The translations under genes and the position numbers were made by a program. The notes under the pieces were generated by a model, which was not told the origin of the DNA, searched no databases, and saw nothing but the letters and a program-made list of their open reading frames with translations. From an uncultured Planctomycetota bacterium (lineage in GTDB: Bacteria; JAJVIF01; JAPKYR01; CAZSPL01): 47,040 nt of DNA. Of the stretch, positions 13,296-32,593 are shown piece by piece (positions within the stretch are counted from its first letter, which is position 1; the number at the start of each line of letters is the position of its first letter). Location: positions 1-47,040 of the forward strand of contig CAZSPL010000006.1 in NCBI GenBank assembly GCA_964608735.1. Direction: 5' to 3'.

Positions 13296-15581
13296 ATGTT
13301 TCAGATGAAAGGCATTGCGCGACGATTACTGCTGACCGGGATATTCACTGCGATGATACTCGCCGCGACCCTGGTCCCCGCGTATTCATACTGGATGTAC
13401 GTCCTGATATACGGCATTGACTACATCGACTGCGTGGATGATGGCAACAACGCACACGTCAACGCGTCGGTCATCTTTCCACAGACCCTCGTCGCCGACG
13501 CGGTGTGCCCGGATGACCCGTTTGACTGGTACCTCGTTCCACTCCAGGGCGACCTCGGATGGGAAGGCATCTTCTACTGCATCGCCGACGGACCGGGGCT
13601 CGTCTTCAGGCTCTATGCCGATACCGGCTCAGGGCTTAACCTTCTCAAGGAAGGCAGCCCCGCTGCGGACACCGAAAGCGAAACCAACCTGTGGGGACTC
13701 GTGTGGAAATTCAAGGATATCGCTAACGACCTCGGGCATGACTTTGTCCCGGCGGGGAATTTCTATGTCAGGGTCTCACATTATTCGGCATACCCCGAAG
13801 ACCACCCCTATTTCCTCATGCTCATGATGGGACCGGGGGAGCACGAGCAATCCGATGCCAACACCGGTCCTAAACGCCTGCTTGCGCCCGGCATGATTCA
13901 TTACGGGCATGTCGATACGGTCAACACATCCGACCTGTTCAAGTTCACCCTCAATCCCGGCGATAATCCGACCGGCATCATCGCCCTCGGGGAGGTCATG
14001 GAAGGAGTCGGCGGGCGCCTCGCCGATTCTTCTCAGCAGCCTGAATACAACCTCCGCCTGACCCTGTTCAATCCCGATGGCGTGAAAATCGCTTCCGTCA
14101 TGCCGAGTGAATCCATGACGGCGAGAATCGACCTGAACATAATGTCGAATGTCCCGCCGGGCCAGTATATGATCGAAGTCTCTATGGCGGCCACATCGCC
14201 CGAACCCGGCGAGGGGCATTATTACATGCTTCTCAATCACGCGCTCGCCCCGGCCACCGGCGACTGGGCCCCCGATGCCAACAAGAACAAGGCAACCGGG
14301 ATAACATTGCAGGAAGGCGTGCCGGTCTCGGATGCCATCTATGCCGGGCGCGACCTCGGCGACTATTACAAGTTCAGCTCCCCCGGTTATTTCCTCGGGG
14401 ATATCCGCGTCGAGCCGCCGATGGATACGCGCTACATCACGCTCGATTTGTACGACAGCGCCAACAAAGAAATCTCCGCGGGCGACCTCGCCGGCTTCGG
14501 CCTCTGCCAGGCCTACGACCCGCTCAAGCCGGGGAATTATTCCATACGCCTGTGGGACCCCGTCGGCCTGCTGAATCCCGCGAAATACACGATAACCCTT
14601 TATCCCCACGGCGACACGAGAACCAAGCCCGCGGAATTTTCGACATGGCAGACGGCATACGAGCTTCCGGCCGATGACTCAAGCGCCGATGACGATATGC
14701 TGCACATGATTCTCTTCCCCTGGATAGCGTCCGACCTCAAGCCCGGCGTGCAGGATGCCCTCTTCGTGAAGCTCGTCGTACCCGAAGGGAAATTCCTCGC
14801 GGGCTATTACGATATCTACGGCTCGCGCCCCGGCTATAAGGTCAGCATTGGGAAGATTGTCCAGCCGGGACAACCGCCCGCGTGGTCGCCGCCGCTGAGT
14901 CCCGATGCATACGGCTTCCTCCTCATCGACATGGACTACGAATACCTCGCCGACCCCGGCACATACTATCTCAGGATACAGCCCCCCGATGGCGTAACAG
15001 GCCAGACGCGCGTGCTCATCGAAAACAACGCGCGCCTTACCGAATGCGTCAGCGATGACAACAACACGTTCTATGAGGCCCTCGACCTGAGGGGCAGCTA
15101 TTTGCTCCCGGTGCCCGGATTCGACCAGCTGTGCCCGGGACTCGATGACGCCGACTGGTTCTATTTTTACACCAATAATTACGACCCGCAGGTCGGCCCG
15201 CTGAAGAAACTGACGTTCAAGGGCGGCGTGGAAGGCATGCGGATGGAGTTTTACGACTCCGACATGGTGATGAAGTTCTATCTGAACTACACGAGCGCAG
15301 GGCAAGTGGTAACCTACGAGTTGAAGAACTATGTCAAGCCGGGCGAGCTTTACCGCGTCAAGATCGAAGCCAACGCCGCGGTGGAAAAGGTGCAGGTGTA
15401 TGATTTGAAGCTGGCGGATGTCCTGCAGTGGACCCCGCGTCCCTTCAAGTTTTACAACGACTACAACTGGCTTCTCAAGCTCAAGCCCGGCGCTTTCCAG
15501 TTGCTGGGCGGAGAAGAGGAAGGGGATGACGATGACGACGGGATGGAGCACATAATCCAAGGCTTCCACCGCAAGCAGTAG
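13296..15581 (+). CDS. Secreted PPC-like repeat protein, tandem paralog of 11069..13264, with an acidic C-terminal tail
   Basis: GGAGG RBS and signal peptide. Collinear with the upstream gene (NNAHVNAS, DPFDWYLVPLQGDLGWEG, SHYSAYPEDHPY, LNHALAPATGDW, YYDIYGSRPGYKV, DDADWFYF). Ends in GGEEEGDDDDDG. Confidence 0.7.
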   Translation: MFQMKGIARRLLLTGIFTAMILAATLVPAYSYWMYVLIYGIDYIDCVDDGNNAHVNASVIFPQTLVADAVCPDDPFDWYLVPLQGDLGWEGIFYCIADGPGLVFRLYADTGSGLNLLKEGSPAADTESETNLWGLVWKFKDIANDLGHDFVPAGNFYVRVSHYSAYPEDHPYFLMLMMGPGEHEQSDANTGPKRLLAPGMIHYGHVDTVNTSDLFKFTLNPGDNPTGIIALGEVMEGVGGRLADSSQQPEYNLRLTLFNPDGVKIASVMPSESMTARIDLNIMSNVPPGQYMIEVSMAATSPEPGEGHYYMLLNHALAPATGDWAPDANKNKATGITLQEGVPVSDAIYAGRDLGDYYKFSSPGYFLGDIRVEPPMDTRYITLDLYDSANKEISAGDLAGFGLCQAYDPLKPGNYSIRLWDPVGLLNPAKYTITLYPHGDTRTKPAEFSTWQTAYELPADDSSADDDMLHMILFPWIASDLKPGVQDALFVKLVVPEGKFLAGYYDIYGSRPGYKVSIGKIVQPGQPPAWSPPLSPDAYGFLLIDMDYEYLADPGTYYLRIQPPDGVTGQTRVLIENNARLTECVSDDNNTFYEALDLRGSYLLPVPGFDQLCPGLDDADWFYFYTNNYDPQVGPLKKLTFKGGVEGMRMEFYDSDMVMKFYLNYTSAGQVVTYELKNYVKPGELYRVKIEANAAVEKVQVYDLKLADVLQWTPRPFKFYNDYNWLLKLKPGAFQLLGGEEEGDDDDDGMEHIIQGFHRKQ

Positions 15582-15788: not shown

Positions 15789-16092
15789 ACTTATATACTT
15801 GATTAGAAGGTGATTCCGATGTAGCCCTGAAAATTGAGTAAAACTAATCGAACGGTCGGTCTCTTTTTCACAATAGAAAGCGCGCTCCACGGAGTGCGCT
15901 TTCGGCATTACGATGATTGACAGTCGGCGCGCCATTCCGTAGCATGGCCTTGTGGAAAAGATAAGGTCAATCCCCCTGCTGAGACTTCTTCTGACTATCA
16001 TCACGGGAGCCGCCGCCGGGCTGTTCTTCATCGGCATCGTAATTCTCGTCATACATCTCATCGGCCTTGTCGCCGGGGGCGGTGGATAAACC

Positions 16093-17217
16093 GTGCCGGG
16101 CGCGACCCTCGAAGATGCAAAAGTCGCCCTCTCCCATGACTGGCTGCTGAGCATCGGCGGGGGGGAACGATGCCTCGCCATCTTCGCGGAATTATTTCCC
16201 GACGCGTCGATCTACACATCGATCTTCCGTCCCGAAGTGATGGGCGGCCTGATTCCTGAAGACCGCGTATGGCCGAGCTTCCTCAATAACTGGCCCGAAT
16301 ACTTCCGCAGACGGCACCGGATGCTTCTTCCCCTGATGCCGGTTGCGTTTTCGCAATTCGATATCGGCGATGTCGACCTCATCCTCTCTTCATCGCATTG
16401 CGCGGCGAAGGGAATACGCAAGCCGGAAGGGGCCGTGCATGCCTGTTTCTGCTACTCACCGATGCGATATGTCTGGGACCTCTATGAAACCTATCTAGCG
16501 GGGATGAAAGGCATCACGCGCTACATGTTCCGGCAATTCGCGCCGCCGCTTCGAAAGTGGGACAAACTTACCGCGGGCGAAGTGGATGTCTTCATCGCAA
16601 TCAGCGACTTCATCGCCGAACGCATTAAGCGCGTTTACGAGCGCGATTCGGTCGTCATATATCCGCCGGTCGACTGCTTGCGTTTCACTATCGATGAGAA
16701 AGCGCGGCGCGATGAGCATTTCCTCGTGCTGAGCAGGCTCGTCAATTACAAGCGGGTGGATATCGCGGTGGATGCATTCCGCGAACTGCCGTACAAGCTT
16801 CGCGTCGTGGGTACCGGCCCGCAGATGGCCGAGCTGAAATCGAAAGCCGGGGCGAATGTCGAGTTCGCGGGATTCGTCGACGAAGATAAACTCGTCGATG
16901 AATACCGCCGGGCGCGCGCGGTTATCGTAACGGCGATAGAGGATTTCGGGCTCGTACCGGTCGAAGCGGCATCGTGCGGCACCCCGACAATCGCGCTCGG
17001 GGCGGGCGGCTATCTCGAGACGGTCCGGGATGAAGTGAGCGGAGTGTTCTTCGCGGAACAATCCCCCGCAAGCGTCGCCGATGCGGTGAGGCGTTTCGCG
17101 AAAATGAATTTCGCTCCTCTTAAAGTACGTGAATCAGCCTTAAGATTTGACGTGCCGCGCTTCAAACAACAAATAATGGATATTGCGAGCCGCGCTATTG
17201 GCGGGTTTAAGACGTAA
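16093..17217 (+). CDS. Glycosyltransferase family 4 (GT-B fold)
   Basis: GTG start 6 nt after GGTGGA. N-terminal VALSHDWLLSIGGGE and the C-terminal nucleotide-sugar binding block EDFGLVPVEAASCGTPTIA, which is the E-x7-E type motif. Confidence 0.85.
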   Translation: MPGATLEDAKVALSHDWLLSIGGGERCLAIFAELFPDASIYTSIFRPEVMGGLIPEDRVWPSFLNNWPEYFRRRHRMLLPLMPVAFSQFDIGDVDLILSSSHCAAKGIRKPEGAVHACFCYSPMRYVWDLYETYLAGMKGITRYMFRQFAPPLRKWDKLTAGEVDVFIAISDFIAERIKRVYERDSVVIYPPVDCLRFTIDEKARRDEHFLVLSRLVNYKRVDIAVDAFRELPYKLRVVGTGPQMAELKSKAGANVEFAGFVDEDKLVDEYRRARAVIVTAIEDFGLVPVEAASCGTPTIALGAGGYLETVRDEVSGVFFAEQSPASVADAVRRFAKMNFAPLKVRESALRFDVPRFKQQIMDIASRAIGGFKT

Positions 17218-17261
17218 GTGGTACAATTTATTGGGCGACAATCGCGGCATAAGGGACATTG

Positions 17262-19316
17262 ATGGACAGGAATTTTCTACCCGGCCCCGAAGGGCGGGAT
17301 TCAATCAAGAAGCGCCTTGTTAAGGAACTCCGGCGCGAACTTCCCCCGAGTCTTGAAAAGCGCCTCGACGGCATCCTCGACGCCGCGCTCGGATTTCATC
17401 CGCTGAATGCAATTCCCCACGGTGAACCATCGTTTGACTTCCGCTCCCTCGCGGGCGAGGACCTTGTGCCCGCGCGCGACGACAGTTTCGGCGCGGCGGA
17501 TTTCCTCAAGGTGAGCCAGGTATTCGAGCGCTCGCTCGTGGGGCTGATATCGAAGTCGGAGCTTCACGGCGATGACCGCACCCGCTTTGTATCGGATATC
17601 CAGGCGTTTTTCGACGCTTTCGACACCGCGCTGCTTTCGCAGCTCGAGGAAGAATTGGTCGACCGGGGGCTGCTTCGTCCGGCACCGACCACCCAGGCCG
17701 AGCCGGCGACCGATATTCTGAGGAAGCTCGGGCTCACTCGCGACCTCGCCGATGAGATGACCGACCCGGTGCTTCTGACAATCGCGGGACGGCTTGTTTA
17801 TTCCAATGCCGCCGCGGATTCGGTCTTCCCCAACCCCAAGGACCGCGAATCATGCTGCGGCGCGAACGGCCCTATCGGCGAGTATCTTCTCCCCGGGTCA
17901 TCGGAACCGGGCGTATGGAATCGCCGGAGAATTACGCTCCCGTATTTCGACGAGCCCGGGAGAGAGACACTTGCCGCATGGAAGAGCGCCGGTACGCCGG
18001 ATGGACTCGCGACGGTCATCATCCTTCTCGGGGCCGGGAAACCTGAGGAGCAGTTGCAACGCATCAACCGGCTTACGAGGGAGAAGCGCCGGTTCCGTAC
18101 GCTCTACCGCTTGAGCAAGGAGCTTCTCGGGGGCTCGGACCTCGAAAGCCTGTTCGAGAGCGTATCCAAAGAGCTTGGCGCGGAAGTCCAGTATGACGCC
18201 ATAATGCTGCATCTGCACAAACCGGCCGACAGCCGCGCCCTTTTTCACCTGACAACCCCGCTTCCGCCTGAAGCCCTTGACCTCCTGCTCGAGAATTCCG
18301 TATCCACGTTGGACGCCTTCGTTGTCGGGGCCGAACCGTCGAATGTGCGCAAGTCGCTCATGAACCCGGATATGCTCGATTCGTCGGTGAGCCTCGAAGT
18401 TAGATCCGGCAACCTTTTCATATTCCCGATCACCACCCGCGACAGCGTGCTCGGCTCGCTCGGAGTGTACCGGTCGAACGACACGCCGGTATCCGATGAC
18501 GACCTGCACCTGTTTTCGACATTCTCAAACCAGCTCTCGCTTTCCCTGCAAAACCTGTCGGCGTTCGAGGGCATGCGGAAGCTCCTGAGAAACAACAGGG
18601 AGCAGATCGATCTCGCAAGGCGCGTGCAGCTTGAGCTTCTGCCCGAGGCCGAGACATTCAGCCGCCTGAAATTCCGCACGCTGTTCCGTCCGGCGACCGG
18701 TTTATCGGGGGATTTCTACCACTTTTTCCGGCAGGACGGGTATGAGGGCCTGGTAATCGGCGACGCATCCGGCCACGGCATCTCGGCATCGTTGATTATG
18801 GCGGCCGCGCTGGCATCGTTCCAGGATGCCTGCTCCGACCCGGGATGCGAGCCGGACAGCATTCTGTACAAGGCGAATTCCGCGCTGAAAAATGTCCTTG
18901 CCGAGGATTTCTTCGTGGTGGCTCTCGTGTTCGTCGTGGATCCCGTAACCCTCATCGCGAAATATGCCACCGCCGGCCAGGCGGGGCCGTTCCTGCTGAA
19001 GCCCGATGGTAAAATGGATTTACTGAAGCCCGCCGGCATTCCGCTCGGGATGTTCGAGGAGCCTTTATCATATGATATAGACAGCATCGCGCTGCATCCA
19101 GGCGACAGGCTGCTCTTCTTCACCGACGGCGCCATCGAAAACCGCAACGGGATGGGCGAATTGTATGGCCTGAACAGGCTGCGCAAATCGGTGAAACGGG
19201 GGATATTCCTCGACGGGGATGAGCTGCTTGCGTCGGTAACCGAAGAAATCGCCGATTTCATAGGGGATGCAAGTTATGCCGATGACCTCACACTGGTGCT
19301 GATGGAAGTCGATTGA
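17262..19316 (+). CDS. PP2C-type serine phosphatase of the SpoIIE/RsbU family with a GAF-like sensor and a long N-terminal region
   Basis: C-terminal block RVQLELLPE...FRPATGLSGDFYHFF...LVIGDASGHGISASLIMAA...LLFFTDG...DDLTLVLMEV is the SpoIIE/PP2C signature. The preceding roughly 150 aa look GAF-like (ends ...GSLGVYRSN...LHLFSTFSNQLSLSLQN). Confidence 0.85.
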   Translation: MDRNFLPGPEGRDSIKKRLVKELRRELPPSLEKRLDGILDAALGFHPLNAIPHGEPSFDFRSLAGEDLVPARDDSFGAADFLKVSQVFERSLVGLISKSELHGDDRTRFVSDIQAFFDAFDTALLSQLEEELVDRGLLRPAPTTQAEPATDILRKLGLTRDLADEMTDPVLLTIAGRLVYSNAAADSVFPNPKDRESCCGANGPIGEYLLPGSSEPGVWNRRRITLPYFDEPGRETLAAWKSAGTPDGLATVIILLGAGKPEEQLQRINRLTREKRRFRTLYRLSKELLGGSDLESLFESVSKELGAEVQYDAIMLHLHKPADSRALFHLTTPLPPEALDLLLENSVSTLDAFVVGAEPSNVRKSLMNPDMLDSSVSLEVRSGNLFIFPITTRDSVLGSLGVYRSNDTPVSDDDLHLFSTFSNQLSLSLQNLSAFEGMRKLLRNNREQIDLARRVQLELLPEAETFSRLKFRTLFRPATGLSGDFYHFFRQDGYEGLVIGDASGHGISASLIMAAALASFQDACSDPGCEPDSILYKANSALKNVLAEDFFVVALVFVVDPVTLIAKYATAGQAGPFLLKPDGKMDLLKPAGIPLGMFEEPLSYDIDSIALHPGDRLLFFTDGAIENRNGMGELYGLNRLRKSVKRGIFLDGDELLASVTEEIADFIGDASYADDLTLVLMEVD

Positions 19317-19403
19317 AGCCCCGGGCAGCCGCATTCGGAAGCCTTTTTTTACCTCTGATATCATCTTATAAAGAAAATTTCCGAAAAATTACCAATTTTA
19401 TAC

Positions 19404-19433
19404 TTGTACTGACCTGCTGTCGTCGGGTATAAT
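19404..19433 (+). promoter_or_regulatory. Candidate sigma70 promoter for the sigma/anti-sigma pair
   Basis: TTGTAC (19404-19409), 18-nt spacer, TATAAT (19428-19433), with an A/T-rich UP-like stretch upstream (19370-19400). Its position argues against the track start ATG 19434. Confidence 0.4.
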
Positions 19434-19484
19434 ATGGACAGGAAAAAGGCAGCCTGTCTGTCTTTTTTATTTTTTAGCAAGGGT

Positions 19485-20102
19485 ATGATTGAAAGCATGG
19501 GTAATCTGAGTGCCTCGGAACTAACTAAGCTCAGCGAAGAGGAACTTATCCAGAGATGTTGCTCCGGTGAGGACGACGCCTGGAAGATTCTCTATGAGCG
19601 GTTCTACTCCTACATCTTCCACCTGGTGAAGGGCAAAAACTACCAATTCACAATGCAGGACACGCAGGATATCACCCACGAGGTCTTCATGGACCTCATC
19701 AAGGGCATCTCCTCGTTCCAGAAGAAGTCCATCCTCAAAACCTACATCCACTCCCTGACCCTGAACCGGGTGCGACAGCATTTCAGGAAGAACCTTACCA
19801 TCAAGCGCGGCGGCACGGTCGAGAAGATAAGCCTCGAGGATGTCGACATCGACCTCGCCGACCACCAGACCATCGCACCCGATTTCGCCATCATGCGAAA
19901 GCAGGAAGTGCTGAACCTGCGCGACAAGATGATGGCGCTGCCGTCGAATCTCCGCAAGGTCATCCAGCTTCGCTACGAGCGTAATTACAAGTACAAGGAA
20001 ATAGCCGACGAGATGGACATCCCCGAGGGTTCCGTCGGCGCGCTCATCCAGAAAGCGTTGCTTCGCCTGCGGGAATTGATAGCACAGGGCTTCGAAGGTT
20101 AA
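19485..20102 (+). CDS. ECF-type (sigma-70 family) RNA polymerase sigma factor
   Basis: Region 2 (AWKILYERFYSYIFHLV...DITHEVFMDLIKGISSF) and region 4 HTH (LPSNLRKVIQLRYERNYKYKEIADEMDIPEGSVGALIQKALLRLRE). Start is ATG 19485 or 19497. The track start 19434 sits directly after the predicted -10 box. Confidence 0.85.
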   Translation: MIESMGNLSASELTKLSEEELIQRCCSGEDDAWKILYERFYSYIFHLVKGKNYQFTMQDTQDITHEVFMDLIKGISSFQKKSILKTYIHSLTLNRVRQHFRKNLTIKRGGTVEKISLEDVDIDLADHQTIAPDFAIMRKQEVLNLRDKMMALPSNLRKVIQLRYERNYKYKEIADEMDIPEGSVGALIQKALLRLRELIAQGFEG

Positions 20103-20177
20103 CATCACCTCTTAATATCAAGATACTATTTCCGGGATACGCGGGAATGCGATTCGGCGTGATTCCGGGGATTTTTT

Positions 20178-21620
20178 ATGTCTGAATTCTGTGAAAAAAT
20201 CGACAGGGAAGGACTGCTCATCCGGCTCCTCGACAGGGAGCTCAACGCATCCGATGAGGATGAGGTCCTCGACCATCTGCACGAATGCTCCGATTGCCTC
20301 GCCAAGGTGGCAAAACTTCTCATAACCAGCGATCAGCTCAAGGGGGAATCGTCAATCGCCGGGGACGCGACGCAAGCCGACCCCCATAAATCCTTGGAGC
20401 CGGACATCATAGGGTTGGCTCTCGAACCCAGAGGCAGCCCGAAGGAGGCCAGGATGGCTCCAACCAGCGGCAGACATGACCTTGTCAAGACTGGGAAGAT
20501 AAAGGTGGATGATTTGCCGATCGGGGTGACGCTGGAGTACAGCCTTTTCGACACCGAGGGACATCTGCTTGTCGCGAGCAACACCCCGCTTACCGAGGCG
20601 ATAATCGACAGCATCAGGCGGCGAGGGGTAAGCGAGGTCACGGTGCGACGTTCGGCCCCGCTGATGGGCTCTGCATTCCAGCGCGAGGCTTGCGCTTTCA
20701 AGGGACGTCCCGACCGTGCGTTTTATACGGTTCTTTCTAACGGTGGCGCTCCCGCCGCGGTATCGGTGCTCGCAAGGCAGATGGCAGTGGAATCATTGAA
20801 GCGCGCATTCCTGAGCGTGGCTCCCGACGCCGCTATCGACACTGATGAAGTGCGCGATACATGCAACGAAGTCGTCGACGACCTCATCGGTGATGAAATC
20901 GTCAGCCCGAGTATAATCGACATCTACCTCACCGACTCATCCCTCTACCATCACAGCATGAACGTGATGATGGTCTTCACCGCTGTATGCGGCGTGCTCG
21001 GACTGCCGAAGCGGGCGGTGAAGTCATACGCGGCGGGCGCGATGCTTCACGACATCGGGCGCGTGCTGCTCAGGAAAATCGCCGGGGAGCTTGAATCGAA
21101 GCAGATTAATGTCGAGAAGTTGCATGCCGAGGCGGGATATAAATACATGAAAGGGCTCGGGGCGTTCGGCCCCGAGGTTACCAACGCGGTACGAAACCAC
21201 CACGAGCGGCTCGACGGGCGGGGGTTCCCGAGGCACGTGCACAACAGCGAACTCGATGAATACGTCCAGGCGCTGATACTCTCGAATTTTTACGACAACC
21301 GCACATGGGACCACTCGCGCGAGCTGAAGAACGGGTTCCACCGTACCGCGAATCTCATAATACAGCAATCGGGAAAACTCGTTTCCGCGCGTGTCGTCGA
21401 GGCATTCCTGAACGCGTTCGGGCATCATCCCCCGGGAAGCTGGGTGAAGCTTTCATCGGGCGAAGCGGGGATGGTGGTGCAGGCGACGCCGTTCAAGCCG
21501 CGGCGTCCCACCGTGCATTTATACTACGACCATTTCGGCGAACGACTGGCCGAATCGGTGCCGCTCGATTTATCGGAGCCGGGCATGCCCGCCATCGTCG
21601 GACGGCTTGAGCTGGCGTAA
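20178..21620 (+). CDS. Fusion protein: zf-HC2 anti-sigma-like N-terminus, DUF3391-like linker domain and HD-GYP (HD-GFP variant) phosphohydrolase domain
   Basis: HLHECSDC (H-x3-C-x2-C) at 20274-20297. KIKVDDLPIGVTLEYSLFD...IIDSIRRRGVSEVTV resembles the N-terminal domain common in HD-GYP proteins. HHSMNV...MLHDIGRV...HHERLDGRGFP (21198-21230) is the HD-GYP signature with F in place of Y. I saw no hydrophobic TM segment. Confidence 0.8.
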   Translation: MSEFCEKIDREGLLIRLLDRELNASDEDEVLDHLHECSDCLAKVAKLLITSDQLKGESSIAGDATQADPHKSLEPDIIGLALEPRGSPKEARMAPTSGRHDLVKTGKIKVDDLPIGVTLEYSLFDTEGHLLVASNTPLTEAIIDSIRRRGVSEVTVRRSAPLMGSAFQREACAFKGRPDRAFYTVLSNGGAPAAVSVLARQMAVESLKRAFLSVAPDAAIDTDEVRDTCNEVVDDLIGDEIVSPSIIDIYLTDSSLYHHSMNVMMVFTAVCGVLGLPKRAVKSYAAGAMLHDIGRVLLRKIAGELESKQINVEKLHAEAGYKYMKGLGAFGPEVTNAVRNHHERLDGRGFPRHVHNSELDEYVQALILSNFYDNRTWDHSRELKNGFHRTANLIIQQSGKLVSARVVEAFLNAFGHHPPGSWVKLSSGEAGMVVQATPFKPRRPTVHLYYDHFGERLAESVPLDLSEPGMPAIVGRLELA

Positions 21621-21653: not shown

Positions 21654-22796
21654 CTACGGGGGATCGAGGACTACGATGGCGTCGTCGAGGGGAGCTGTAA
21701 GGTATATCTTTTCACCTACGGGATCATAAAGAATATCTGAATAAAGGCAAAAAGGCGCTATCAGCCATTCGGAATAGGCATTTGTTGCTAAATCTATGAC
21801 GGCCATCCTGAAATGAGTTTTTCCATCAGATTTCCTCGTCCAAAGAGTGGCATATAATCGGCTGTTAGCAACATCCTCAGCCATTTCATCCCCACCTCCT
21901 TCAGGATTTGGGTTAGTTATCGGGCTTGGATCAGTAATATACCATTGCTCAATTCCATCAGTCTGCACATTTATAAGTGCCATGCCAACACCGTCATCAG
22001 AATCCGAACGAAAACCAACCATTACATAGGTATCGCCATTAAGCGCGTATGAGGTGTTTTGCTCTTCGCCATACGGTACTGGCAAGGTTGCCTCTATAGA
22101 CAAATCCGTCACATTGACAATATAGCATGTCGATCCTATTGTTGTTTCATCCGAACCATATAATTCTCGATTGGAAAGAAGTGGTGACATTACAACAAGC
22201 TTCCCGCCCTGGTAGGACAAACCTGACTCGAGCGCAACAGACAGGCTAGCCGTCCTGGTTAGAGTGAAATCAGTAAGCCTGACCTCGAACAACCTTCCTG
22301 TGCCGATATGAGAAGAATGCTCACCCAATCCCCAGGATTCATCAAATTCGGGCCAGGTCCCACCCGAAATATAGAGGTATTCTCCCGAGTCATCAATGGC
22401 AACCTGATACACATTTGCGGGAGTTAAATCGATGGTTGCAATTTGCCCGGTATCCGTGTTTATACGAGATAATTTGCCTTGGTTTGTATCCCCTGGATTA
22501 TATACACAATATATATAATCACCGTCTGTTCCTATTTCCATATCATAAACATAATAATTGAATTCCAGTGTTTTTATAATCTCCATCGTAGATTTATTTA
22601 TTACTTCTATCCCATCCGTGCTCGCCGCATATATTAGGGCGTTATCCGGCGCGAACAGAAGGAGATATGGTTTCTTGCCAATATAATGATAAAATTCATC
22701 GGAAGCGAAAGTAGCTTTGCTCCTCATGAAAGAGATTACGCATCCTATTATGATGGCTGCCAGAATGACAAGGAATATAATAATTGATTTTCTCAT
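21654..22796 (-). CDS. Membrane-anchored or secreted beta-propeller repeat protein (YVTN-like), AT-rich island
   Basis: AAGGAG RBS and N-terminal TM/signal MRKSIIIFLVILAAIIIGC. Repeated blade-like segments are present (ALIYAASTDGIEVINKST, GDYIYCVYNPG, GEYLYISGG, GEKIYLTAPLDDAIVVLD). Confidence 0.7.
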   Translation of the reverse strand: MRKSIIIFLVILAAIIIGCVISFMRSKATFASDEFYHYIGKKPYLLLFAPDNALIYAASTDGIEVINKSTMEIIKTLEFNYYVYDMEIGTDGDYIYCVYNPGDTNQGKLSRINTDTGQIATIDLTPANVYQVAIDDSGEYLYISGGTWPEFDESWGLGEHSSHIGTGRLFEVRLTDFTLTRTASLSVALESGLSYQGGKLVVMSPLLSNRELYGSDETTIGSTCYIVNVTDLSIEATLPVPYGEEQNTSYALNGDTYVMVGFRSDSDDGVGMALINVQTDGIEQWYITDPSPITNPNPEGGGDEMAEDVANSRLYATLWTRKSDGKTHFRMAVIDLATNAYSEWLIAPFCLYSDILYDPVGEKIYLTAPLDDAIVVLDPP

Positions 22797-22816
22797 TTAC
22801 ACTACTCCTTTAAGAA

Positions 22817-25780
22817 TCAATTCGCACTATATTTGTATATTTTCCATATAGGGTCGCAGTATTTAAACCACATAAAAGAAGAGTGGCCGGGAGTTTTTTT
22901 AAGGTAATACATATATCCTATGTCAATAGCCCTACCTGAACATATCATATATTCCGGCCACTCAAATTCTCTTGCCAGCTTACAGTGAGATTCCATCCAA
23001 GCCCAAATAAACTTATCCCCGGAACGACTTACTGCCCAATAGTCACTACAGGGAGTCAGCGTTTCATTCATAATACCGTTAAAATAAGGAGCGCATAGTG
23101 CAGATATTGACGTTCTTCCCATGCCCAAATATGATTGGTCTATGTCTACCTTAGCGCCATAGCCGGCTATCCCCAATAACTTCTGAGAATATATTAGTTC
23201 CGCCCAATAATTTGGCCAACCTATGCCATCGTCAAGCTGCCAGCATGCAATATTTATCCACCAATCAGTTGCGCTGAAATTGTTGAATTCATATGATCTA
23301 AACCTTGCATCCCAAAACGCTGGGTTTGTCGCATCATCAGTGATGGGTAAACATCCAGTTGAATACTCTCCATCAGAAGCTCTACGATAGAAATGGCCGA
23401 TATATGGTGTTAAAGGACCAGAGCCATTATCAAGGTCAATACCGCCGTGAGAAACGGAGACAAAGAGATCACCGCCTGATTGCACAGAGACTTCTGTTTC
23501 AGCCCCGTTCTCGCCAGCCTTCAGTTCTAGTTTGCCAGTGCCGCCGAGTTTGAGGTCATTGAACACGTTGAGCACGTTTCCGGCAGGATCATATCGACCT
23601 CTTTTATTTCCATATTGAAAAGCATTAGAAATATCAACAGCTTGATGGCAGGACAGGGCCGATGAATAATCATCCTGGAATTCCTCTGGCAGTAAATGAT
23701 CGCGGTGAGACATGTATAGAACAGGCCAATCGCCAAGTTGATTTTCCTCTTCCTGACTGTTGGTGTAATCGTCGTCTGAAACTATGAGCAATGAAGGTGA
23801 AATGTCTTCGCTCATATATGTCAATCCCGGGCCACGCATATAGAAATCGAGACAGTCTTTCGCGGGGATACCAAACAGCTCACACAATTTTTGGTACCTA
23901 ACATCCCCCTCCTTCAATCGATATGCATAGAAATTGCAGGTCCTCTCGCAGCCGATTGGAAGATGAGGCTCGTTCAAGGGGCTGTTTGTGGCTACCACTT
24001 GTATAGATTCAGGGGGAGTGCCGTGCCAGATGACAGCCGCGGCAAACTCAATATTAGCGACATATGCATTGCCATCCCAATATCTGGCAAATGAGGGGCC
24101 GTCGAAGTAGTCAGCTCCCAACAAACGGAAATTGTTAGGATTAGATGGGTCCACAAATTGCTGGTAGGCCTTAATGCCCATGACATAGGGACCCATTGCT
24201 GAAGGGAGTAGATCCTCTGAACGTCTCCAGTTGCCATGATAGCTATCATCAACGGCTTGATCCTCAACCCTTACGCGGAGGAAATCTATGTCATCTAAAT
24301 CTTCAAGTCCATCGCCAAAGTGTTCGTTAAGTATCCAGTAGTTCAACTCGTATTCATTGTATGATTGCCCGTCGTTAAGTAACTGATAATTCTTATCCGG
24401 GTCCGGCCAAGGTATATGTTCGTTAGGAGCGGTTTCTATTTTATCGAACCGAGCCATGAAGGCAATCCCCACTGTACCCGGCACAAATTCCTCATCTATC
24501 CCGTATTCAAGCGCAAAAGGCGAATAATTGCCTTTGAGGTTATGATTATCTCTCGCGAATGCAAGAATAACCATTTTGCATGGATCATCACGTAAGGGAT
24601 CAACAAATGCCTGCTCAAAATCACTCCGGTCTCCACCACCGATATAATGTGCCTCTCCAAAGGCGGGGTTGTCATAAGCGTCGAGGATATCGGTGATCGC
24701 CTTTGCGGCGTCGGGGCCGTTTAAAAGGGCCGGGGTCCCTTCAATGAAATCGGGAGGAGTGATATCGGCGTCAGTGAAGTTACACCCTATGCAGCCTTTT
24801 AGAGTTTCGAAACCTTCTCCCCCGGGTTCATTCTGGGGAATGCAATCCGCGGCGACCAGCGCAAAATATTCATGATTCTCATTCCGGTTGAATTCCAACG
24901 TGTGATAGCCGAGGGAAACGAGTGAGAAACCCTTTAACGCAGTGGATGTTTCATCATAATCATAAGGATCGACGAGGGCAAAAGGAAAATCCCATGGGTC
25001 GGCATTATCAACAGGTGTTTTTACATCAAAGCCCCAATCAAGAGCCGTGTCGCACGGGGGCGCTCCGGCCGCCTCGATTCGATAGCAACAAGCGTTTTGT
25101 TCCCCTTGCTCGTATGAGTGATAGCCCTCATTATCGTAAACATTGATATCACATACGCAATGCGGAGGCGGGGCCTGGGCCGCGCGTTCGCCGGTTCTGT
25201 TGGCGAAGTTGCCCTGCGAATATTTGCTCAAGCCGCGCGAACCGTTGAAATTGAATTCTATCTTCGGCACGGCTTTTACCGAGGACAGGGAATCGTTCTT
25301 TATCCTGACGAGTGCGGTAAGACCGCCATTGATCAATTCGATATCCGATAGGACATCATTGAAATCGCCGATGGACCAGTTCATCTTGCTCTCGGCAATG
25401 TCCTTGTTCAAGGGCTTATCAAAGAACAACAGGTAAAACCCCTCTTCATCATTCCCGAGGCATGATGTAATCCGCGCGGGCTCGGTGCACACTTCGAATT
25501 CCAGCGCCCTTGCCTGAGGATACGATGCCTGAGGCCAGAAAATTATGGATATATGGTGGTAGCCCGGTTCAAGGGCCTTTGCAGGCTGGAAGTATACTTC
25601 ATTCGCGCCGATGAGCTTTACGGGAACCGGCTGATCATCGATGCAAGCGCCGAAATCCTCATCCCCGGGAATATAACCGTCCCCTTCTTCAAGCGCAACA
25701 TGGAATACGGGGAGCGTGTTGATAACCCATGATTCGCCCCTCATTCCATTATAGAAGCCGTCGCATGTAATCTGTCCCAT
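22817..25780 (-). CDS. Large (987 aa as drawn) cysteine-rich protein with a C-terminal clan-CD-like His/Cys dyad region. It is probably the body of a frameshifted lipoprotein.
   Basis: A long ORF in AT-rich DNA, 20 nt upstream of the propeller gene. There is no signal peptide after Met 25780, but the frame stays open upstream to 25892. See the fragment at 25837..25968. Motifs DLFVSVSHGG (His codon 23447-23449) and DWWINIACWQ (Cys codon 23243-23245). Confidence 0.7.
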   Translation of the reverse strand: MGQITCDGFYNGMRGESWVINTLPVFHVALEEGDGYIPGDEDFGACIDDQPVPVKLIGANEVYFQPAKALEPGYHHISIIFWPQASYPQARALEFEVCTEPARITSCLGNDEEGFYLLFFDKPLNKDIAESKMNWSIGDFNDVLSDIELINGGLTALVRIKNDSLSSVKAVPKIEFNFNGSRGLSKYSQGNFANRTGERAAQAPPPHCVCDINVYDNEGYHSYEQGEQNACCYRIEAAGAPPCDTALDWGFDVKTPVDNADPWDFPFALVDPYDYDETSTALKGFSLVSLGYHTLEFNRNENHEYFALVAADCIPQNEPGGEGFETLKGCIGCNFTDADITPPDFIEGTPALLNGPDAAKAITDILDAYDNPAFGEAHYIGGGDRSDFEQAFVDPLRDDPCKMVILAFARDNHNLKGNYSPFALEYGIDEEFVPGTVGIAFMARFDKIETAPNEHIPWPDPDKNYQLLNDGQSYNEYELNYWILNEHFGDGLEDLDDIDFLRVRVEDQAVDDSYHGNWRRSEDLLPSAMGPYVMGIKAYQQFVDPSNPNNFRLLGADYFDGPSFARYWDGNAYVANIEFAAAVIWHGTPPESIQVVATNSPLNEPHLPIGCERTCNFYAYRLKEGDVRYQKLCELFGIPAKDCLDFYMRGPGLTYMSEDISPSLLIVSDDDYTNSQEEENQLGDWPVLYMSHRDHLLPEEFQDDYSSALSCHQAVDISNAFQYGNKRGRYDPAGNVLNVFNDLKLGGTGKLELKAGENGAETEVSVQSGGDLFVSVSHGGIDLDNGSGPLTPYIGHFYRRASDGEYSTGCLPITDDATNPAFWDARFRSYEFNNFSATDWWINIACWQLDDGIGWPNYWAELIYSQKLLGIAGYGAKVDIDQSYLGMGRTSISALCAPYFNGIMNETLTPCSDYWAVSRSGDKFIWAWMESHCKLAREFEWPEYMICSGRAIDIGYMYYLKKTPGHSSFMWFKYCDPIWKIYKYSAN

Positions 25781-25968: not shown

Positions 25969-26100
25969 TCGGCACCCCTGTCGCGAAACATCTATCCTGA
26001 AGCATACCATGATTATCAATCCTGAACAATACCCGGCATCCTCGCATCCAAATATTGGAAAGCGATGAAAATTCTGAATTTGAGGAAGGCGATGGCACCA

Positions 26101-28365
26101 ATGCAAAAAATCAACTTTCTCTGTGTAACAGCTATTGCTGCAGTAGCTGTTTCCATCATAACCGGATGCTCCTCCACCAACCCAGCCTCTCCCGCAACCC
26201 CGGGTGAATCTGCCCGCGATGCATCCTCTACAACACATCAGCTATGGGGATTGTATGAAATAACCGTCGATTTCAACACCCGCGAAGCGGAAGTCGTGCC
26301 GCTGCGACAGGCGTCGCTTCGTCTCAACGCACTCCCCTTCCTCGAACCCCCGGCGATGACCGACCTCTATGTCACGAACGTCTCCTACACCGACCCGACG
26401 CCGATGACGCCGGGATTCCTGTTCGCGGATGTCCACATCACCAACCCGTATCTCGGCGCGACCGAGTACACCGGATTCGATGTGAAGGGCATCGTGTTCG
26501 GGCACGAGATAATCAACTACGACGGTATCACCCGCTGGTGGAACCCGGTCGAATTCACCGGCACCGGGATAATGGGATTCAAGAAAGGGTTGCTCGGCTA
26601 CTCGGACACCGGGTACTTCACCGATATATACAACGACTATAAATATTTCAGCTATGGGCTTTCGCTCAATGATAGTTTGTCGGACCCCGGGGTCATCGGC
26701 AATGTCATCGCCAGCCGCGGGCATTTTCCCGTTGGCGCGACCATCTCGCGTCACTACGAGATGATTTACGGCTATTCATCGTATGAGCTGCTGCGTTTTC
26801 AGTACGCGGTGGATGCATCGTGGCAGATGCCCACCGGCGAGCCGCCGTATACGCCGGATGAATTCCCGCCGGGGGCCAACCAGGCGGAGGCGTGGAATGT
26901 CACCACGACGGTGGTCGAGAATACGCTGAACTGGTATGACGATGAGGGTACAGGGGATTTGATTGTCGATATCGCAGTGTATGACTGGCAGGGATTCGGC
27001 GATACGACCGTCTCGTTCTCGTGCGATGAAATCGGCGTATTCAGTCCCATATATAATTCAATCCCGAAATCAATTCTCGGCGATTACGCGATATACCGAT
27101 TCGAAATCTACGATGCCACACCCAACTACTGGGGCAACCTTCCGCTGACGATATCCGTCGAAAGCTCCGACAAAGTATACGGGCAGGGGAATCCATGGGG
27201 CGTTTATCCGACCGGCTATGTCACATCGCGGTGGCGCATGGAAGTACCGGTGCTGAGCCATCCGCCGAGCCAGACCGACTGCGAAGGCACACTGCATGCG
27301 AAGGATCCGCTTGGCCAGGCGTGGACGGTGGGTCTTACGCTCGATGAAGAAGGCTCCTCGCCGGTGTGGGATATGGCATACGAGTACCAGGGCGCGCAGG
27401 CGGGATATGTCATTTACCCATATCACAAGGCCGGGGAGAATGACAATAAAGTCACCGCGCTGAAATATTTCGATTCGGATAAGCCGATATCCAACGCGGA
27501 GCAGGGGACATTCTATGAAATCCCGCCGGATGAATATTGCGACTTCGTGTGGTCGATAGACTGCGACCCGAACGACGGCCGCGTCATTTATGTGGGAAGC
27601 AACAAGCCGAGCACATTTATTGCGATAGACTCCACCAGCAACAAGCTCGCGGAAGTCGACCTCGGCGACCAGATAATCGCCATACAGGCGCTGTGTATCG
27701 ATGACATGAGCAACTTGTGGCTGCTTTCGCTTCGCACGACGATGTTCGAGCCGTCATATGAGCTGCGGTCATACGCGCAGGTGGACGGCCCGCCGTTTTA
27801 CGTGCAGACGACATACACCGATATCAGCCCGTATCAGCCGTTCTCGCTGTTGTCGTTCATCTATGACATGGACTACAACTACCAGTCGAAACGATTGTAT
27901 ATATTCGACATGGACGGCGGCACATCGGATACCGGAGCCATACAGGTGTTCGATATAAACACGAGCGGCATTCCGCAGCATAATGCGAACATAAGCAAGG
28001 AAGGCATCTTCCCGTTTCCCGTCGACCTGCTTCCCGAGGGGCCGGACGGGCGGCACCACTGGTATTATCACGTCGCATGGGGCGGGGATATTTTCATCGA
28101 CCATTCGGCTGGTGATAACGAGCGGTGCCGCATCACGACGATGGCCTGCATCGACGACGATTCATCCGACGGCCCGACCCTCGTTCACTGGACATTATGG
28201 GATGAAGACCTGCAGGTGGTCGACGAATACAACGATTTATACGACCCGACGCTCGGGAGCAAGTGCTGGGATACATTCGCGGTGAATCCGGATGAGAATG
28301 CCAACATCGCGGCGATGTTCACTACGGCGAGCTGGGAGTACGCCCCCGCGCCGGCGGGGTGGTAG
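26101..28365 (+). CDS. Large lipoprotein: conserved uncharacterised N-terminal module plus C-terminal propeller-like region
   Basis: MQKINFLCVTAIAAVAVSIITGC lipobox (start 26101; the track start 26065 is possible). The N-terminal roughly 260 aa are homologous to the N-terminus of the gene at 45037. The C-terminal part has blade-like repeats (RVIYVGSNKPSTFIAIDSTSNK, KRLYIFDMDGG). Confidence 0.75.
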   Translation: MQKINFLCVTAIAAVAVSIITGCSSTNPASPATPGESARDASSTTHQLWGLYEITVDFNTREAEVVPLRQASLRLNALPFLEPPAMTDLYVTNVSYTDPTPMTPGFLFADVHITNPYLGATEYTGFDVKGIVFGHEIINYDGITRWWNPVEFTGTGIMGFKKGLLGYSDTGYFTDIYNDYKYFSYGLSLNDSLSDPGVIGNVIASRGHFPVGATISRHYEMIYGYSSYELLRFQYAVDASWQMPTGEPPYTPDEFPPGANQAEAWNVTTTVVENTLNWYDDEGTGDLIVDIAVYDWQGFGDTTVSFSCDEIGVFSPIYNSIPKSILGDYAIYRFEIYDATPNYWGNLPLTISVESSDKVYGQGNPWGVYPTGYVTSRWRMEVPVLSHPPSQTDCEGTLHAKDPLGQAWTVGLTLDEEGSSPVWDMAYEYQGAQAGYVIYPYHKAGENDNKVTALKYFDSDKPISNAEQGTFYEIPPDEYCDFVWSIDCDPNDGRVIYVGSNKPSTFIAIDSTSNKLAEVDLGDQIIAIQALCIDDMSNLWLLSLRTTMFEPSYELRSYAQVDGPPFYVQTTYTDISPYQPFSLLSFIYDMDYNYQSKRLYIFDMDGGTSDTGAIQVFDINTSGIPQHNANISKEGIFPFPVDLLPEGPDGRHHWYYHVAWGGDIFIDHSAGDNERCRITTMACIDDDSSDGPTLVHWTLWDEDLQVVDEYNDLYDPTLGSKCWDTFAVNPDENANIAAMFTTASWEYAPAPAGW

Positions 28366-30516: not shown

Positions 30517-32544
30517 TTACCACAATCCGTTGTCGAGCAATTTCATCAGGAAGGCATCCTCTTCGCCGTTTGAAATGAATTCCGAAATACCCTCGCCGTT
30601 GTCGAGGTCGATTTCGTTGGTGAATGTCCCGACGAAGAAAATTTCGCCCCGCGCGTTCAATGCGATATCCCCGGCGAAATCATCCCCATCGCCGCCCCAT
30701 GTTTCCATCCACAGGTGATTGCCGAGCGGGTCGAACCTTGTGAGGAAGATATCACTCGCGCCGTTGGATGTGTACATTTCGGTATCCGGGCCCGTGTCCA
30801 GATCGACTTCATCTTGAAAACGGCCCGATGTGTAAAGGTCCCCGCTGCTGTCGACCGCCATGAAATGAGCTGAAAGAATATCGGTACCCATCTCCGAATT
30901 GAACCAGATGCGGGTCCATTGATAATGCCCGTCCGAGTCGTAGCGGCATATGTACGGGCTGTCGAAGAAACCCGAGGTATAGATGTCCTCGCCGGGACCG
31001 GGGTCGAAATCGGCGTCATACATGAATGAACCCGCGACATAGACATCGCCGGATGAGCCGGCCGCGACATTCATTCCCCATGCATTGCCGGTGTCGCCCC
31101 AATTTACGCCCCACATGTAATCGCCGTCGAGATCGAATTTGCTGAGGTACGCATTGCCGTCGTAGCTTTGGCATGTGTGTTCATCGACGCCCGCACCGGG
31201 ATCAAGGTCGACCGTTTTATTGAGTGCTCCCGTAATGTAAATGTATGCGGAGCCGTCATACGCCGCCGTCCTTGTGTTGGTATGAGCGTTTGTGCCTCCC
31301 CATGTGAGCGTCCAGATTTGTCCGCCGCCGGGATCGAATTTGCTCAGGAAGGCGTCCTCAAAACCGATGGGTGCCCGCTCATCGACACCGGGACCCGGAT
31401 CGAGGTCGATGGCGCCGTAATAGGTGCCGCATAAGTAAAGGTCGTCGGCGCCGTCCGTGCAAAGGCCGTACGCGACATCCTGCATGCTGTTTCCCCATAC
31501 CAGTACCCGTTGATAGTTACCGGAGCTGTCGTATTTGCAGACATAGCCATCGCCCCATGTACCTTCCTGCGTGTACGAGTCCACGCCGGGGCCGGGGTCG
31601 AAATCGACCGTGCCGATGAACTGGCCGCCTATGTAGACATCGCCCATGGAATCGACGGCGATTGCGTTCACCGGCGTACGTCCACCGCCCCATGTGCGAG
31701 CCCAGAGGAAATTCCCTTCGCCGTCGAACTTGCTGATGAACGAGTCGTATTCTCCCTGGACCGTGTGCTCATCGATGCCGGGACCGGGATCAAAATCGGT
31801 CATTGAGGTGAATATTCCCGCCACGTAGATATTGCCGGTGCCGTCGGTCGCGACGCAGTCCGGGAAATCCGAGCCCTCCCCACCCCATGTGACGGCCCAT
31901 CCGGGAAGGATGATATTCTCGATGATGATATCTTTCGTCTTCTCGACAGGGCCGTAGTTGTCGGATGTCACCACGGCCTTTATTTCCACCGGCGTATCGG
32001 CATTGACTTCGCCCGCGGTAAAAAGAGTGGCGGGCGATGCGGGGCTTTCAAACAATCCCGCGCCGGGAGGACTGCATTGCCACTCGTAAACAATGCCGCT
32101 GTCGCCCTCAGCCGATACGCCGAACTCACCCGATGTGTTCTCTTCGAGCGCATCCGGGCCGTCGATGTCGCTTACCGCGAGAAGCGAAGTATCGATTATC
32201 CTGACATCCCGGGTTTTGATTACGGGCTCGAATTCATTTGCCGAAACGACGACTCTTAGTTGTATGGGGGTATCGGAAGTCACCGTTCCCGCCGTAAAGA
32301 TTGTCTTCGCTCTGTCGGGATTCTTGAATCGCCCGGCGGAAGGCGGATTGACGGTCCAGAAGTATCCGACATCCGTGCCGGTGACGGGATGGATAAAATA
32401 GGTCACGCTGGAATACTCATCGATTTCGGCGGGGCCTTCGATGGCGCCGACGACGGGGATTTTGCCCCCGTCGCATGCCCACAAGCCCGCGCAAGGGAGC
32501 AGTATGGCCAGGGACAGTAGCAGCAGCCTTGATACCCTACACAT
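30517..32544 (-). CDS. SBBP-type seven-bladed beta-propeller lipoprotein with two N-terminal Ig/PKD-like domains
   Basis: Start at ATG 32544, with GGAGG 6 nt upstream. MCRVSRLLLLSLAILLPCAGLWAC lipobox. Two roughly 95-aa repeats (GP-E-DE..., ...TAG-V--DTP-----VV-S-----V-KT-D--I). Then seven repeats of W..TWGG...D....A.D..G..Y..G.F....DFDPGPG.DE.T..G..D.F..K.D..G. Confidence 0.8.
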   Translation of the reverse strand: MCRVSRLLLLSLAILLPCAGLWACDGGKIPVVGAIEGPAEIDEYSSVTYFIHPVTGTDVGYFWTVNPPSAGRFKNPDRAKTIFTAGTVTSDTPIQLRVVVSANEFEPVIKTRDVRIIDTSLLAVSDIDGPDALEENTSGEFGVSAEGDSGIVYEWQCSPPGAGLFESPASPATLFTAGEVNADTPVEIKAVVTSDNYGPVEKTKDIIIENIILPGWAVTWGGEGSDFPDCVATDGTGNIYVAGIFTSMTDFDPGPGIDEHTVQGEYDSFISKFDGEGNFLWARTWGGGRTPVNAIAVDSMGDVYIGGQFIGTVDFDPGPGVDSYTQEGTWGDGYVCKYDSSGNYQRVLVWGNSMQDVAYGLCTDGADDLYLCGTYYGAIDLDPGPGVDERAPIGFEDAFLSKFDPGGGQIWTLTWGGTNAHTNTRTAAYDGSAYIYITGALNKTVDLDPGAGVDEHTCQSYDGNAYLSKFDLDGDYMWGVNWGDTGNAWGMNVAAGSSGDVYVAGSFMYDADFDPGPGEDIYTSGFFDSPYICRYDSDGHYQWTRIWFNSEMGTDILSAHFMAVDSSGDLYTSGRFQDEVDLDTGPDTEMYTSNGASDIFLTRFDPLGNHLWMETWGGDGDDFAGDIALNARGEIFFVGTFTNEIDLDNGEGISEFISNGEEDAFLMKLLDNGLW

Positions 32545-32593
32545 AACCAGCCTCCGGAATTCGAGTACTTCAAATATACCACCAAACAAACCG

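Follow-up and report, generated by a model that had tools for sequence, protein, structure and literature searches.

A putative zinc-binding anti-sigma domain joined to a divergent HD-GYP module and encoded behind an ECF sigma factor in an uncultured Planctomycetota bacterium

The window analyzed here is a stretch of 47,040 nucleotides (nt) of contig CAZSPL010000006.1 from an uncultured Planctomycetota bacterium, and its plus strand carries at 20178–21620 an open reading frame (ORF) of 480 residues that begins 75 nt (20103–20177) past the stop codon of an ORF encoding a sigma factor with extracytoplasmic function (ECF). The product of the second gene, called the fusion below, combines an N-terminus resembling the zinc-binding class-I anti-sigma domain (ZAS) with an HD-GYP domain. 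Such a gene pair had been proposed in an original prediction made from the DNA letters alone. The ECF sigma gene and the 75-nt gap were confirmed by the coordinates and by Pfam matches exceeding the cut-offs, and the motifs HLHECSDC, HHSMNV, MLHDIGRV, and HHERLDGRGFP are all present in the fusion. The predicted lack of a transmembrane segment also held, as the best 19-residue Kyte-Doolittle window of the fusion scored 1.57 and lies within a helix of the HD core. The two genes comprise the following parts, in which the model-based features were taken from AlphaFold2 (AF2) and its predicted local distance difference test (pLDDT).

19485..20102, + strand: ECF (group 4) sigma factor, 205 residues from the ATG at 19485.
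20178..20351, + strand: putative ZAS domain, residues 1–58, with predicted ligands C5, H33, C37, and C40 and a D19-x-E-L22 motif.
20352..20489, + strand: disordered linker, residues 59–104, poorly conserved, with pLDDT < 50 over residues 50–104.
20490..20927, + strand: N-terminal beta/alpha module of the Bd1817 type (DUF3391-like) with a helical stalk, residues 105–250, from the AF2 model and its fold match.
20928..21419, + strand: divergent HD-GYP domain, residues 251–414, with HD and HD_5 exceeding the cut-off, the motif HHERLDGRGFP, and N370.
21420..21620, + strand: C-terminal beta-strand domain, residues 415–480 and the stop codon, containing PPGSWV... and five strands in the AF2 model.

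The sigma ORF was matched by the Pfam families Sigma70_r2, r4, r4_2, and Sigma70_ECF, each above its cut-off, and by TIGR02937 at 75.2 bits (cut-off 42.9, E = 4.4e-21), while no named NCBIfam subfamily matched it at its own cut-off. It consists of regions 2 and 4 only, in approximately 200 residues, which assigns it to group 4, and among solved proteins it is closest to AlgU, E. coli sigmaE, and M. tuberculosis SigH. The homologs are 197–232 residues long with 49–95% identity, forming 69 clusters at an identity of at least 49%. An alternative start at 19434 would give a longer ORF; 19485 is the likely start because of the length of these homologs and because the −10 box and the ATG at 19434 overlap. 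The sigma and fusion ORFs share a reading frame, and the translation of 19485–21620 contains two stop codons. A separate observation concerns the sigma2–sigma4 linker (residues ~103–132, 19791–19880), where LTIKRGGxVEKxSLDDxxIDLxD is near-invariant even in sigmas of only ~50% identity. Such linkers are variable as a rule in ECF sigma factors, and the near-invariant one may therefore have a function.

The motif HLHECSDC comprises residues 33–40 of the fusion (H33-L-H-E-C37-S-D-C40). The family was followed in 11 distinct loci, namely the window, L001, L002, L003, L004, L086, L165/166, L167, L168, L169, and L170/171, in all of which C5 lies exactly 28 residues upstream of H33. The pattern C-x27-H-x3-C-x2-C is invariant in these loci together with its spacing, even though they belong to four divergent clades (31–75% identity). 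Residues G12, L22, L31, and A45 are also invariant in the N-terminus of the family, and the D-x-E-L preceding helix 2 is nearly so. Three of the six cysteines of the whole fusion protein belong to this site, and shuffled versions of the protein contained HxxxCxxC within the first 60 residues at a frequency of 3.3e-4. The RsrA model TIGR03988 matches residues 15–44 (E = 0.0016), and zf-HC2 is matched by all 11 homologs having an N-terminus (E ≤ 0.1, best 1.1e-5). When the N-terminal profile was used for searching the PDB, the best match was RsiW, a weak one (E = 0.24), with LDGDILPKDEHVLNEHLETCEKC aligned to LDkeLdtkdedevLaHLrsCpeC. The AF2 model of residues 1–59 has a pLDDT of 82.9 and consists of helices 3–18, 24–36, and 38–58, with C5 located on helix 1 and the H-x3-C-x2-C motif where helices 2 and 3 meet. 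A Foldseek comparison of this model with 350,542 PDB chains gave six matches, all of which are RsiW or RslA, the RsiW match having a TM score of 0.75, a root-mean-square deviation of 0.9 Å, and a match probability of 0.92. The RsiW and RslA structures matched are zinc anti-sigmas solved together with their sigma. The motif, the profile matches, the predicted fold, and a strict synteny support the assignment of the N-terminus as a ZAS-type anti-sigma domain.

The synteny was evident in a survey of sigma/fusion gene pairs, which had been suggested along with the original prediction: all 11 loci that carry the fusion and extend upstream of it have the sigma gene as the immediate upstream neighbor in the same orientation. 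A reverse search starting from sigma homologs gave the same arrangement, since the three long contigs opened (L168, L169, and L170/171) all have a gene for a 452–503-residue protein with zf-HC2 and HD_5 directly downstream. Approximately 155 unrelated HD-GYP loci among the pattern-scan matches listed served as the control, making 167 loci with an HD-GYP ORF altogether. Among the listed matches of these scans, two loci were relevant to the family (L085 and L086), and a further word-indexed protein search added none among the 8000 candidates listed. Among the 167 loci listed, HxxxCxxC located N-terminal to HD-GYP is confined to the loci of the family, and a hidden Markov model (HMM) of the sigma family, which may overlook very divergent ECFs, found an adjacent sigma only at these loci, together with one distant and non-adjacent match in L083. 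Two of the three ZAS-less relatives, P0012 (46% identical, L085) and P0014 (L172), have no sigma upstream. In a rough neighbor-joining tree, the fused clade is monophyletic within ordinary Bd1817-type HD-GYPs, and the ZAS-less P0012, P0014, and P0075 are nested in it, which suggests a secondary loss of ZAS. Where every fused member has N370, P0012 and P0014 have the canonical Asp. From such sequence comparison, there are hints that Asn370 and anti-sigma function go together. The conserved module excludes the GAF-PP2C and GT4 genes located further upstream, whose synteny is limited to the closest clade (L001). The pair of sigma and fusion genes, which probably constitutes a sigma/anti-sigma module, is conserved across a group of uncultivated bacteria.

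The full-length AF2 model of the fusion has a mean pLDDT of 65.6, with the N-terminal helices 3–18, 24–36, and 38–47 at a pLDDT of ~80. The linker that follows varies among the homologs in both sequence and length, being roughly 10–65 residues. Residues 105–160 form a small beta/alpha module with strands 107–109, 121–124, 130–132, and 153–158, from which long helices extend to residue ~250. Foldseek placed Bd1817 first among the PDB matches of the full-length model (E = 4e-6, ~330 columns, TM score only 0.33–0.49), and PmGH, PA4781, and DvhD were matched after it. The description of this segment as DUF3391-like, which was contained in the original prediction, stands in the structural sense only: Pfam DUF3391 (PF11871) gave no match on the fusion even at E ≤ 1, and Bd1817 is the top fold match, with sub-threshold DUF3391 matches in 3 of the 10 nearest ZAS-less relatives. 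The family profile is matched from position ~101 onward by hundreds of ZAS-less HD-GYP proteins. The HD-GYP domain itself was detected by Pfam HD (35.5 bits, cut-off 22) and HD_5 (33.0 bits, cut-off 27.2), and its PDB profile matches are PmGH (4mcw, 1.4e-13), V-cGAP3, PA4781, and Bd1817. In the C-terminal beta domain, which is common to many ZAS-less Bd1817-type HD-GYP proteins, P418-P419-G420-S421 is invariant.

The state of the HD-GYP site was examined by aligning the family to PmGH, for which the residue roles were taken from the literature (PMC4159591). PmGH H189, H221, D222, H250, H276, and H277 correspond to H259, H291, D292, H316, H341, and H342 of the fusion, all of which are invariant. 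E343 of the HHE is kept, and HHExxDGxG[F/Y]P is invariant across the clade. The invariance of the His ligands, D292, and this motif speaks for a maintained metal/ligand site. Degeneracy of the HD-GYP residues had been named at the outset as a possible objection; 6 of the 7 metal ligands shared by all HD-GYPs are kept, and the seventh, PmGH D305, is replaced, as are the equivalents of K225 and R314/K317. The third-metal ligand of PmGH, E185, is S, G, T, K, or Q in the fused clade and Y in most of the Bd1817-type outgroups (binuclear subgroup). D183 of the PmGH catalytic pair D183/K225 corresponds to D253 in the window protein, and it is N or S in distant members of the clade. The F replacing Y in the GYP motif, which the original prediction singled out, is not diagnostic, since both residues alternate within the family. 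The substitutions, which are clade-specific and fixed, point to a repurposed HD-GYP site, which may belong to a "trigger" enzyme of attenuated activity, function as a receptor, or take a different ligand.

The domain content, its conservation, and its exclusive co-occurrence with the sigma are best explained by a ChrR-style soluble anti-sigma factor with an HD-GYP-derived sensor, an interpretation that we regard as somewhat on the probable side. Both genes would be transcribed from one housekeeping-type promoter. Residues 1–58 would fold as the class-I anti-sigma domain, with zinc held by C5, H33, C37, and C40, and this domain would bind and sequester the co-encoded ECF sigma. The flexible linker of ~45 residues would tether it to the Bd1817-type HD-GYP module, which is probably dimeric and has the His/Asp metal site. 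The module would be the cytoplasmic input domain, whose ligand or metal state decides the availability of ZAS. In one state the ZAS domain would be docked on the HD-GYP module, and the other state would leave it available for holding the sigma, whichever direction the switch may take and whatever hydrolysis the HD-GYP domain may still perform. The ligand would most likely be a cyclic or linear dinucleotide, such as cyclic di-GMP (c-di-GMP) or pGpG. The overall design would be the ChrR plan, with the HD-GYP-derived sensor replacing the cupin. A narrower version, in which the role of HD-GYP is that of a dedicated receptor or of a slow "trigger" enzyme, with c-di-GMP, pGpG, or a different dinucleotide as its ligand, and the occupancy of HD-GYP sets whether ZAS holds or releases the sigma, is put forward tentatively, and we would sooner expect it to need revision than to hold as it stands.

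Several results weigh against the proposed switch. On the anti-sigma side, the zf-HC2 family (PF13490), which the original prediction had read into this N-terminus, scores below its cut-off on the fusion itself (residues 13–40, 18.3 bits versus 22.2, E = 0.0026). The ZAS assignment accordingly rests on family-level evidence, which is provided by the matches of all 11 homologs and the RsiW/RslA fold. The Foldseek E-values of the 1–59 model are ~1–6, which is non-significant at such a short length. Furthermore, no autoregulatory ECF-type promoter was recognized upstream of the operon, whose promoter looks sigma-70-like; because of this, and because the genes downstream of the pair run convergent to it, the module is regarded as a two-gene unit. 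On the side of the HD-GYP ligand, four positions of PmGH are altered. The last metal ligand, D305, is N370 in all ZAS-bearing members without exception, and it is D in the Bd1817-type outgroups. K225 is replaced by R295 in most members of the fused clade, and it is K in 6 and M in 3 of 9 outgroups. The c-di-GMP contacts R314 and K317 are variable in the clade (E, G, or N), corresponding to H379 (a variable position) and E382 in the window protein, and the outgroups have R for the former and K or R in most cases for the latter. K225A abolishes the activity of PmGH, while D305A, R314A, and K317A do not abolish it in vitro (PMC4159591). The substitutions in the clade are thus not proof of inactivity, since these three PmGH mutants are still active. 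Canonical c-di-GMP hydrolysis is nevertheless doubtful, as the equivalents of D305, K225, and R314/K317 are changed or lost, and with catalytic and contact residues changed in this manner, the ligand may not be c-di-GMP at all. A Pfam scan of 26 larger ORFs of the window turned up no GGDEF, EAL, or PilZ families. Rigid allosteric coupling through the long disordered linker is also unlikely, and the docking or occlusion step is speculation; a tether/occlusion model is preferred to a rigid lever because the linker is disordered and variable. Of the coupling of an anti-sigma to c-di-GMP that was originally predicted, a soluble ZAS–HD-GYP fusion conserved with its sigma is supported, and the level or turnover of c-di-GMP or pGpG is no more than a possible signal, with key PmGH positions being substituted.

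Among the other explanations, a thiol switch like that of RsrA survives best, and we consider it unlikely. Oxidation or alkylation of the zinc-bound Cys would be the signal, and HD-GYP would be a mere scaffold, a dimerization domain, or an independent enzyme with no control over the release of the sigma. The ZAS motifs of ChrR, RslA, and RsiW are largely structural, which counts against such a switch. Its appeal lies in the Cys/His/Cys/Cys site, which is complete and invariant, in the disordered linker, which decouples the two halves, and in the divergence of the catalytic and c-di-GMP-contact residues. Soluble class-I anti-sigma domains are also enriched in the zinc motif and are often redox sensors (PMC7406223). 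Against this, the fusion is retained in every lineage examined with invariant metal ligands and HHExxDGxG[F/Y]P, which would be odd for an inert appendage. The host looks anaerobic, because an aldehyde:ferredoxin oxidoreductase is among its genes; this neither supports nor excludes a thiol sensor.

The invariant ligands can also be read in another manner, in which a His-rich (di)metal center remodeled by Asn370 senses metal (iron availability), a diatomic gas such as oxygen or NO, or redox state, and not a nucleotide, and signals to the ZAS domain. In agreement with this, 6 of the 8 PmGH metal ligands are invariant and the nucleotide-contact residues are not, the D-to-N change is invariant and clade-specific, and HD-domain di-iron sites are reported to support diverse chemistry (PMC8177086). 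This explanation is nonetheless quite improbable, since the family still conserves the GYP loop, which in PmGH is linked to the nucleotide site, and the literature examined yielded no precedent for an HD-GYP sensor of gas or iron.

A regulated phosphodiesterase with no anti-sigma function is assigned a low probability, below that of the sensors above. Here the zinc motif would be a regulatory or zinc-ribbon domain, and the sigma would be the transcriptional activator of the enzyme or a mere neighbor. The sub-threshold zf-HC2 score agrees with this, and so do the database labels of the homologs, which are annotated only as HD-GYP or HD phosphohydrolases. That the fusion and the sigma occur together exclusively (in 11/11 loci, against 0 of ~155 among those listed) is difficult to reconcile with it, as are the fold, which is matched only by anti-sigma domains solved with their sigma, the lack of the sigma in relatives without the zinc domain, and the operon promoter, which is sigma-70-like and not ECF-like. 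Finally, an artifact, in which two genes, one for a small anti-sigma and one for an HD-GYP protein, were joined by an assembly error, a frameshift, or an incorrect gene call, has nothing in its favor and is excluded for practical purposes, because the same uninterrupted fusion ORF recurs in 11 independent contigs from metagenomes and metagenome-assembled genomes of different samples and sources.

Three regulatory features were located around the gene pair.

19403..19432, + strand: candidate sigma-70-type promoter of the sigma/anti-sigma operon, TTGTAC-18 nt-TATAAT, with an A/T-rich block on its 5' side.
19442..19478, + strand: leader hairpin with a T-run, in the stretch that separates promoter and sigma start codon (terminator-like match 19442–19468 plus tail).
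20128..20177, + strand: intergenic hairpin and U6 abutting the anti-sigma start codon, scored as terminator-like by the scanner.

The promoter occupies the same position in L001–L003 as TTGGCA-18-TATAAT with conserved flanks, and the copy in the window is under the threshold of the consensus scanner. The leader of the sigma gene is ~45 nt long (in L001, promoter and leader are at ~7260–7360), and its hairpin has an 11-pair consensus in the window, L001, L002, and L003 with one compensatory pair. It resembles an attenuator or a 5' stabilizer. An Rfam scan of the window at gathering thresholds found nothing, the leader hairpin included. The intergenic hairpin has a minimum free energy of −23.9 kcal/mol (z = −1.98), and hairpin-capable sequence, judged by eye and different in its letters, was observed at the same intergenic spot in L001–L003. 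This hairpin could tune the sigma:anti-sigma ratio or gate the translation of the anti-sigma.

The sigma operon is preceded by genes for a GT4 glycosyltransferase (16093–17217) and a 685-residue GAF + PP2C/SpoIIE phosphatase (17259–19316), a pair which is also present in L001 and not in the distant clades. The window ORFs scanned include no STAS or RsbW partner-switching genes. Upstream of the GT4 gene, at 15917–16089 (L001 ~2410–2585), there is a sigma-70-like promoter, TTGACA-17-TAGCAT, conserved in L001, and a small hydrophobic ORF of ~45 residues (15952–16089, VEKIRSIPLLRLLLTIITGAAAGLFFIGIV...), which lies 5' of the GT4 gene and is likewise conserved in L001. A shared ECF-type promoter at this place was considered and rejected, as the sigma-70-like promoter and the small ORF were found there instead. 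Elsewhere in the window, the GC content of 22001–24000 is 0.43 versus ~0.56 in the remainder; this drop is inside a 987-residue ORF on the minus strand (22817–25780) with no Pfam family, which may be horizontally acquired. Six ORFs of 679–766 residues have no Pfam match (386–2686, 2794–4833, 11069–13264, 13296–15581, 26065–28365, and 30517–32589). The two of 766 residues were examined as paralogs, and this was rejected, their resemblance being limited to lipoprotein-type signal peptides. Near these six ORFs there are genes for beta-propeller or repeat proteins (DUF5074, SBBP, and WG repeats), and in L001 and L169 the module is flanked by large repeat proteins of a similar kind. In the P0015-type clade, a conserved gene set follows the module (L168 8421–11329 and L169 8458–11404), consisting of a 226–254-residue hypothetical protein, a PF01663 type-I phosphodiesterase/nucleotide pyrophosphatase, a small protein, and BioY. 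It is possible that these genes are a regulon or a nucleotide-related neighbor.

The ZAS/HD-GYP fusion is undescribed in the literature searched, in agreement with the original prediction that this architecture had not been characterized. None of the papers searched contained zf-HC2 together with HD-GYP, and those containing anti-sigma, HD-GYP, and ECF described no such fusion. Neither HD domains nor c-di-GMP are mentioned in the main text of the ECF re-classification paper or in that of the class-I anti-sigma survey, and the words "sigma" and "zinc" are both absent from the survey of HD-GYP domain architectures. Both halves are known families, and the plan of ZAS with a cytoplasmic sensor is known from ChrR. 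The fusion has so far been found only in uncultivated, apparently anaerobic bacteria. ECF sigma factors are among the largest signaling families of bacteria, and we know of no input signal for most soluble anti-sigmas. HD-GYP proteins are usually viewed as enzymes or receptors with N-terminal inputs, and here the N-terminal domain looks like a sigma-grabbing output. If the switch proposed above is true, a nucleotide or metal sensor would be linked straight to promoter selection with no intermediate effector, the ChrR-type design would gain a new sensor class, and a compact two-gene switch would become available for synthetic biology. If nucleotide occupancy is indeed the signal, this would be the first ECF sigma directly controlled by a nucleotide second messenger via an enzyme-derived anti-sigma, and the fusion would be the first case of an HD-GYP protein whose output domain sequesters a transcription factor. 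The replacement of Asp by Asn at a metal ligand, invariant and clade-specific, would also offer a handle on the conversion of HD-GYP enzymes to sensors.

The closest known system is ChrR/sigmaE of Rhodobacter sphaeroides, which Campbell et al. 2007 reportedly described as a soluble anti-sigma of the ZAS type whose C-terminal sensor domain is a cupin. Like ChrR, the fusion is soluble, has an N-terminal H-x3-C-x2-C domain and a separate C-terminal cytoplasmic domain, predicted to bind metal, that would receive the signal, and is encoded after an ECF sigma. Unlike ChrR, it has a C-terminal Bd1817-type HD-GYP module of ~375 residues with the beta domain, a disordered linker of ~45 residues, and no cupin. 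The fusion shares the pattern L-D-x-E-L...H-L-x-x-C-x-x-C and the upstream fourth ligand with RsiW/SigW (PDB 5wuq), RslA/SigL (PDB 3hug), RsrA, and RshA. In contrast to the fusion, RsiW and RslA are membrane proteins under proteolytic control and RsrA is a small stand-alone thiol switch, and none of RsiW, RslA, RsrA, and RshA has a nucleotide-hydrolase-type domain. The trigger phosphodiesterases PdeR and PdeL of E. coli are EAL enzymes that also regulate transcription through protein or DNA contacts, thereby combining a c-di-GMP-turnover domain and a transcriptional output in one protein as the fusion may do. They differ in using the EAL fold and MlrA/DgcM contacts or DNA binding, with no sigma/anti-sigma pair.

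The original prediction named RsiG/sigmaWhiG of Streptomyces as the closest precedent, a place that belongs to ChrR with its ZAS and C-terminal cytoplasmic sensor domain. The likeness to RsiG, in which a second-messenger level sets the sequestration of a sigma, would apply if the ligand is c-di-GMP; RsiG differs in being a coiled-coil that uses c-di-GMP as glue for a non-ECF sigma, and it has no ZAS motif and no HD-GYP (PMC7005675). The order of N-terminal beta/alpha module, stalk, and HD-GYP is that of the Bd1817 family (Bd1817, PA4108, and VC2497; bioRxiv 10.1101/2021.11.05.467447), to which the fusion adds the ZAS domain and linker. It also has N370 and R295 and has lost the R314/K317 equivalents, where ordinary members keep D, K, R, and K/R. 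DvhD of Desulfovibrio vulgaris has an HD-GYP that is a non-catalytic c-di-GMP receptor, in which binding rearranges the stalk helices and dimerization and drives the output domain (PMC13090378). Unlike the fusion, in which the HD and HH metal ligands are kept, DvhD has SQ and MN in their place and is a membrane protein controlling a periplasmic protease; like the fusion in its fold, it is a precedent for HD-GYP as a receptor that drives an output.

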